From positions 23,126,001 to 23,190,000 of the forward strand of contig OZ024750.1 of NCBI GenBank assembly GCA_964016885.1: a stretch of DNA of 64,000 nt, given 5' to 3'. This DNA is from Eledone cirrhosa (lineage: Eukaryota). Position numbers and translations under genes: made by a program. Below, in pieces: positions 59,408 through 60,065 of this stretch. Position 1 is the stretch's first letter. The number at the start of each line of letters is the position of its first letter. Under the pieces are notes generated by a model. It saw nothing but the letters and a program-made list of their open reading frames with translations, did not search any database and had not been told where the DNA came from.

Positions 59408-60065
59408 ATATTGTTATACTTTGGGAGGGTCATGTTGCCAATAAGAAACACACGCACCAGTTGCTTTCACTTCAATTTATTATATATTTATAAATTTATA
59501 AATTTACAAATCTACAAACTTATAAATTTCTGGTTGGTTGGTTGGTTCCACAACCAGATAGTTGTTTATATATATAGTCATAGTCCTTTCGTCACACACT
59601 CTGTGACCTCTTCAGTGACTGGGGATTCCTTTCTTCGTTTCTGTGCCTTTTCTTTCTTCTATCCTACGCCATTTTGTTTCTGTGTGTGTGTTGTGTGCTC
59701 AGTTTGCGCAAACTGAGCACACAACACACACACAGAAACAAAATGGCGTAGGATAGAAGAAAGAAAAGGCACAGAAACGAAGAAAGGAATCCCCAGTCAC
59801 TGAAGAGGTCACAGAGTGTGTGACGAAAGGACTATGACTATATATATAAACAACTATCTGGTTGTGGAACCAACCAACCAACCAGAAATTTATAAGTTTG
59901 TAGATTTGTAAATTTATAAATTTATAAATATATAATAAATTGAAGTGAAAGCAACTGGTGCGTGTGTTTCTTATTGGCAACATGACCCTCCCAAAGTATA
60001 ACAATATCGGTTTCAACACACGATTTCAGATAAAGAATCTTGCTAAACAAATTCAGAAACGATAT
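59408..60065 (+). mobile_element. 600-bp perfect palindrome of a PLE pseudo-LTR plus 58-bp tail; HHRs at 59795-59839 (+) and 59576-59620 (-)
   Basis: Centre at 59707/59708. ATG at 59982 encodes MTLPKYNNIGFNTRFQIKNLAKQIQKRY, versus MTLPKYNNICFDTRFHIKNLAKLIHRRY in the intact PLE. HHR AGUCA CUGAAGA G GUCACA-GAGUG-UGUGAC GAAA GGAC UA UGACU. Confidence 0.92.

Follow-up and report, generated by a model that had tools for sequence, protein, structure and literature searches.

A spacer-free 600-bp palindrome in Eledone cirrhosa is a tailed head-to-head pair of PLE pseudo-LTRs whose shorter arm terminates in bases that match the flanking repeat

The 600-bp palindrome at 59408-60007 of the window (the whole stretch of 64,000 nucleotides of Eledone cirrhosa DNA that was analyzed, positions 23,126,001 to 23,190,000 of contig OZ024750.1) is confirmed as a head-to-head pair of pseudo-LTRs (pLTRs) of a Penelope-like retroelement (PLE), in which one of the two arms is tailed. 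The fold-back is linked to PLEs by pLTR homology, by a hammerhead motif and by the start of the PLE ORF, as an initial annotation had proposed. An inverted pLTR plus tail is a published PLE product, of which the palindrome is a further example, and what is likely new is a detail, namely that the last few bases of the shorter arm match the flanking repeat, which provides a modest mechanistic lead and a testable refinement. The parts of the palindrome and its surroundings are as follows:

59408..59707, minus strand: inverted short pLTR arm, the exact reverse complement of 59708-60007
59708..60007, plus strand: direct pLTR arm, extending from the end of the 3' UTR through the hammerhead and the ORF start to site 1 and aligning with the pLTR of the intact element above shuffles
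60008..60065, plus strand: tail from site 1 to site 2, with 54 nt certain and a final ATAT (60062-60065) that may be target
59982..60065, plus strand: first 28 codons of the PLE ORF, ATG at 59982, 22/28 identical with the intact ORF
59795..59839, plus strand: minimal type I hammerhead motif (motif scan; stem II folds; predicted cleavage after 59834)
59576..59620, minus strand: hammerhead of the inverted arm, mirroring the one above (motif scan)
59394..59411, no strand: (AT)n tract at the short-arm end, common to the neighboring fold-back, with 4 nt that are also the element's own
60062..60079, no strand: (AT)n tract at the tail end
58963..59400, no strand: neighboring fold-back of another family, with arms of ~200 nt, a 6-nt spacer, a 34-nt tail on the left and the same architecture

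The palindrome is exact, as first described, with arms of 300+300 nt that are 100% complementary and meet without a spacer at CAGTTTGC (left of the center) and GCAAACTG (right of it). In RNA sense, the short arm ends within codon 9 of the ORF start, at site 1, and this terminus (TATAACAATAT, then ATAT) is common to the intact element, where it is position 29977, in agreement with the original claim. The other arm continues the ORF start in frame for 54-58 nt; a tail of 54 nt of non-repeat sequence (60008-60061) precedes (AT)n, whereas the length of 58 nt given initially is reached only by counting an ATAT that is indistinguishable from target, and codon 28 may likewise have the target TA as its source. 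The homology of the 28-codon peptide to the N-terminus of the intact ORF is upheld by a scan score of 113, as compared with 46 for the best of 100 shuffled queries. The non-coding arm aligns with the pLTR of the intact element at a score of 184.5 (300 shuffles, 129 +/- 7.6, maximum 156.5), yet the palindrome and this pLTR have no 14-mer in common, hence the palindrome derives from a family that is sister to that of the intact element, and of which it is a dead by-product. Both flanks are (AT)n, so that a target-site duplication would not be visible. The center may derive from a natural TGCGCA palindrome that the intact element has upstream, but in the alignment with the arm the two are not matched to each other.

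Minimal hammerheads of PLE pLTRs were defined previously (PMC4209133), and a hammerhead motif in the pLTR, as in canonical EN+ PLE insertions, is present in the palindrome, with putative cleavage. The motif scan gives CUGAAGA-G-GUCACA/UGUGAC-GAAA-GGAC-UA with a stem I of 5 bp for the palindrome, and CUGACGA-U-GUUGCA/UGCAAC-GAAA-GAUU-UA with a stem I scored at just 2 bp for the intact element. Between the two, a pair of stem II base pairs is altered on both sides, and the homology with a double compensatory change that had been noted at the outset is thus reproduced by the motif scan. The published minimal type I motifs likewise have an extra base between positions 9 and 10.1, a G10.1-C11.1 pair, a 6-bp stem II with compensatory changes and a very short stem III; in contrast to them, the loop III region here (AGGACU, AGAUUU) is, by eye, self-complementary only via G-A/G-U pairs (PMC4209133). 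Rfam returned 0 families at gathering score over the whole window, and an E-value scan of 58600-59400 gave only sub-threshold, hairpin-driven matches of the microRNA type; the motif scan found no hammerhead in the neighboring fold-back at 58963-59400. The center of the palindrome lies 92 nt upstream of the hammerhead core, which rules it out as the cleavage site. Elsewhere in the window, solo single-arm repeats with the classical hammerhead motif CTGATGA-GGAC-TAGC-GTCC-GAAA end at (TA)n (58636-58860, 14844-14997, and 42627-42751). The copies of a further family, F4 (48156-48386, 15108-15260, 47855-48002, and 57087-57242), have the fixed start TTTCAG, and by eye their first 50 nt have hammerhead geometry with the variant core CAGAAGA instead of CUGANGA, in which case the 5' end would coincide with stem I.

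The initial annotation, in which the palindrome shares its terminus with the intact element, is to be supplemented on two points: this element is a partial tandem, and the family of the palindrome is a diverged sister of the element's own. The two main features of the intact element are:

23218..29977, plus strand: intact sister PLE, a partial tandem that ends at site 1 against (AT)n
25830..29456, plus strand: 1208-aa ORF with an N-terminal domain, an Asn-rich insert, RT, a CX4CX2C linker and C-terminal GIY-YIG-type endonuclease motifs

Within the tandem, 23218-25855 is identical with 27340-29977 over 2638 nt, the run of identity ending exactly at 29977, and the 5' join of the element has ATA in common with the flanking repeat. 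The tandem copy is 5'-truncated at 23218, a few bases before an in-frame ATG, and a 701-aa RT-endonuclease ORF (23229-25334) is kept intact. The 1208-aa ORF contains the motifs DKS, YVDD (at 824) and VVY...YIG, with CTNRKCIIC at 1075, NCKTRNVVYSIRC at 1090, YIG at 1114 and His at 1129 and 1145-1150 in the linker and endonuclease. In Pfam, the full 1208-aa protein had no match, RVT_1 being hit below the cut-off only, and no match to GIY-YIG was obtained. Judged by motif, the element would be a canonical C-terminal-endonuclease PLE of the linker-bearing kind. The protein has the CX2-5CxxC linker before a C-terminal GIY-YIG endonuclease and the CCHH motif, and thereby resembles the Nematis and Neptune clades, which also target microsatellites (PMC8557442), a placement made by motif and by eye; the endonuclease end (R..EA..I...P.LN) appears, by eye against Figure S2 of that paper, Nematis-like rather than Neptune-like. 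The cysteine linker is described as absent from the Penelope/Poseidon clade. A Naiad/Chlamys PLE was rejected, as these have an N-terminal endonuclease and no canonical hammerhead, whereas the present element combines C-terminal endonuclease motifs with a hammerhead motif. The Asn-rich insert (residues 241-410, 48% Asn) lies in frame at 26550-27060, in the N-terminal part of the ORF upstream of the RT, and in the rotifer cases consulted such inserts separate either the RT from the endonuclease or the RT core from the thumb.

An unbiased search of the window for fold-backs (arms of at least 30 nt, spacer of at most 30 nt) found 10, all of which (10/10) combine an arm that stops at a microsatellite with an extended one, and none of which is symmetric (the far end of the 8137 extension was not located). 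If each arm chose its end independently and with equal chance, such a uniform outcome would be obtained about once in 1000. The nine fold-backs other than the palindrome have spacers of 1-24 nt, at most three mismatches and the same short-plus-tail layout, tails measure 34-94 nt in the eight window families in which the tail end was located, and hammerhead motifs occur in the arms of four window families. The short arm of the fold-back at 58963-59400 abuts the short arm of the palindrome across one 18-nt (AT)n tract. This neighbor reads LPIYNNLC across its site 1, but homology of LP.YNN.C with the PLE N-terminus was not counted, as its score of 42 lies below the shuffled maximum of 46. At 47468-47751, the terminal TCTCT of the short arm leads into a long (CT)n tract and then (AT)n, which fits either target pairing or repeat growth. 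The tails of two copies of one family (14040-14235 and 56927-57040) both end in CTTCA, one being followed by (CA)n and (TA)n and the other directly by (TA)n.

The commonest family of the window, F1 (4238-4432, 4662-4719, 8346-8482, 9156-9391, 16857-17059, 30843-30982, 44050-44182, and 63078-63283), comprises 14 arms and one tail-only piece, and all of its 3' ends fall at two sites, eight being short (one with a 2-base variant) and seven long. Together with the 10 fold-backs, this supports the earlier suggestion of two alternative internal ends, one per arm. F1 includes both solo short arms and solo long arms, hence either site is usable alone, and other TA motifs in the F1 tails never serve as ends. 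The 5' start is the same base (GTCCAG) in 10/14 arms, for which transcription start or RNA cleavage are candidate causes. The spacers vary (G, GC, TAATTC, and GCTAATAAT), and two of them copy arm sequence located 5-7 nt from the center; the constant start base combined with varying, arm-copying spacers fits a fresh join at each insertion. Arm pairs within an insertion are identical over 14 diagnostic bases in 5/5 cases, as compared with 4/40 between insertions (permutation P=2/120, 0.017), a sixth two-armed copy having been left out because one of its arms is without the diagnostic segment. Neither a hammerhead nor an ORF was detected in F1, and its PLE origin is therefore inferred from architecture.

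The template sequence at site 1 can be read from the long arm, which makes the overlap of the short arm with the flanking microsatellite measurable. For nine families, it amounts to 3, 3, 3, 4, 7, 4, 4, 5, and 2 nt, a sum of 35, as compared with 9.0 expected when junctions are placed randomly along the same sequences (P about 4e-7), with site 1 anchored by hand in each family and some families possibly related. The probability becomes 5e-5 after dropping two families that may be related to others and 7e-4 for the four hammerhead-bearing families alone, and with per-family values of 0.045-0.24 none is striking singly. The proposal that priming occurs internally at ATAT is hence backed statistically at site 1, but not at site 2, where the ATAT may be target and microhomology is not scorable because no copy extends past the site; the intact relative reads CGC TAT GG at this position. 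The match at site 1 may have been caused by pairing at priming, by nicking at TA or by growth of the repeat from the element's end, and priming by base pairing is thus one reading of a trace that nicking at TA or repeat slippage may equally leave. The two start regions have no unusual fold (z 0.61 and 1.01), in contrast to the start region of an anole PLE, for which a stem-loop is reported (PMC11167929).

We consider it rather probable that both nicked strands of the target were primed in a coupled manner on one RNA, at two internal sites and in a single insertion event. Both nicked strands of a (TA)n tract would prime reverse transcription a short way into the ORF of one shared element RNA, the short arm resulting from priming at site 1, in which the 4 nt of ATAT that match the target probably assist, and the tailed arm from priming at site 2. 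Both cDNAs would then run to a common 5' point and join head to head, in the case of the palindrome without a spacer, so that each joined cDNA could serve as template for the second strand of the other. What we infer here is that a single RNA molecule was used, that site 1 base-paired with the target and that the cDNAs were joined head to head, and the two internal starts and the extension of both strands would be as seen in vitro with the anole PLE. The exclusively mixed composition of the fold-backs, the private variants shared by paired arms and the matches at site 1 together favor coupled priming with site-1 microhomology, and these population tests come from other families of the window, as the palindrome's own family has a single copy within the 64 kb. 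Shared variants are equally expected from snap-back copying or from later gene conversion.

An unlikely alternative is that a single priming at site 2 was followed by self-priming, whereby the cDNA, or an antisense template, folds back and the copy is captured at the first ATAT, which would make site 1 the landing site for the other target end and not a start site. Self-priming was proposed earlier from palindromes at inverted junctions (PMC3846280), and it would account for identical arms, a spacer-free center and the microhomology at site 1. However, site 1 is also the end of the intact element and of the solo short arms, none of which has an inverted partner, a 1-nt spacer between arms with the same start base (4241-4349) is hard to obtain by snap-back, and two start sites were directly seen in vitro (PMC11167929). 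Slightly less likely again is that the protein and the RNA structure by themselves fix the start sites and that the match to the flank is secondary, arising from endonuclease trimming at TA, RT stutter or slippage. Non-homologous starts have indeed been reported (PMC11167929), the tail has been attributed to endonuclease-mediated resolution (PMC8557442), and the TCTCT-ending arm followed by (CT)n before (TA)n, like the CA-ending tail followed by (CA)n in one copy and not in another, could be explained in this way. On the other hand, compound (CT)n(TA)n and (CA)n(TA)n tracts are also found away from fold-back ends, so that such targets may pre-exist, and further TA motifs within the F1 tails are always passed over as ends.

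It is very improbable that the hairpin is mobilized as a whole, in the manner of a non-autonomous MITE-like or SINE-like element. A near-identical arm does occur in sequencing runs of several organisms, with at least half of the sampled words in 8/24 listed runs, which come from five studies, one of them maybe the source, and show the arm, not the hairpin; no RNA run was among the matches listed. Yet F1 centers and spacers vary from copy to copy, solo arms exist and the ends are asymmetric, unlike terminal inverted repeats. A MITE or foldback DNA transposon was separately rejected, as symmetric terminal inverted repeats are not seen and one arm overhangs by its tail in 10/10 fold-backs, and so was a non-LTR retrozyme, as there are two head-to-head copies and not a head-to-tail tandem array of hammerhead monomers. 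That the palindrome is a fold-back chimera of sequencing or assembly is scarcely credible in spite of its 100% identical, spacer-free arms, since the symmetry stops exactly at a base common to the intact element and the flanks are unmirrored, which makes an artifact unlikely, and since the nine further fold-backs repeat the layout with spacers and mismatches of their own.

Coupled priming at two internal sites is in its core not new, as two internal starts and extension of both strands have been published in vitro (PMC11167929). In that work, target-primed reverse transcription (TPRT) by an anole PLE (PAc, Poseidon of Anolis carolinensis) cleaved and extended both target strands from two internal RT start sites that bound the tail and are not homologous to the cut DNA, a dimer was predicted, and the steps after initiation were left unvalidated. 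Like PAc, the palindrome has two ends inside the ORF start that bound a tail (observed here as genomic ends), an AT-rich target, products expected on both target strands and a hammerhead that is uncut in the inserted copy. The starts of PAc, however, lie ~111-118 nt into the ORF in an AC-rich stem-loop and are reported as non-homologous to the cut DNA, whereas site 1 here lies 26 nt into the ORF on an ATAT that matches the flank, with 2-7 nt in common with the flank across the nine families.

For canonical EN+ PLE insertions, inverted pLTRs with tails, junction palindromes, Asn-rich inserts and a proposed self-priming via an antisense template (PMC3846280) as well as clade motifs, a (TA)n bias and a tail of 30-40 bp (PMC8557442) have been described, and the formation of inverted repeats and tails in PLEs was named an open question (PMC8557442). 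The palindrome agrees with these insertions in its head-to-head inverted pLTR, in the homology of this pLTR to an element with RT and C-terminal GIY-YIG endonuclease (motif-based), in the tail on one arm, in the (TA)n target and in a tail-extended pLTR that includes the first codons; the intact copy agrees in its partial tandem and its Asn-rich insert. The palindrome differs in that both arms consist of pLTR only, with equal 5' extent, forming a perfect 600-bp hairpin without ORF body, and in its tail of 54-58 nt as against the published 30-40. In the literature searched, no report of site-1 microhomology or of strict short-plus-long pairing was found, which is weak evidence of novelty, as older papers on Penelope structure lay outside the scope of the search.

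As a tentative generalization that we hold to be less probable than the reading of the palindrome itself, twin priming on a single RNA may be obligatory in microsatellite-targeting PLEs, with two fixed sites, pairing of site 1 with the repeat and joining of the cDNAs. If true, inverted pLTR, tail and second-strand synthesis would arise in one step and such PLEs would be a steady source of perfect hairpins; in the boldest form of this reading, the telomerase-related RT would also stutter at its start site and thereby lengthen the flanking microsatellite. Fold-backs without a spacer or with a short one are natural controls, in which genome sequences suffice to count microhomology, arm pairing and template identity, and a concrete in vitro test follows should these numbers hold genome-wide.

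If the ten fold-backs of the 64 kb were transcribed, abundant near-perfect double-stranded RNA would result. Octopus has been reported to combine exceptional hairpin-forming potential with hyper-editing (PMC5625713). The closest named relative of the 1208-aa ORF comes from an octopus: among 5624 candidates, 95 matched residues 480-1208, the best being labeled Octopus vulgaris (69% identity). A pattern for the shared ORF start gave 0 matches in metagenome contigs. A profile scan yielded 50 loci of relatives. A long (TA)n tract terminates a single one of them and a short-spacer palindrome, in which no hammerhead can be seen by eye, occurs in another, so that the loci do not test the priming model. 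Seventeen of them were checked for repeats and hammerheads, giving several terminal repeats of the tandem type, one hammerhead and one case of long inverted ends. In a relative of 45% identity (L001, 2462-2672) the 3' UTR runs directly into a long (TA)n tract, the short-spacer palindrome lies at 5429-5560 of L050, and in L023 a PLE relative is located between 235-nt inverted ends (79-313 and 2944-3178) that are 87% identical.
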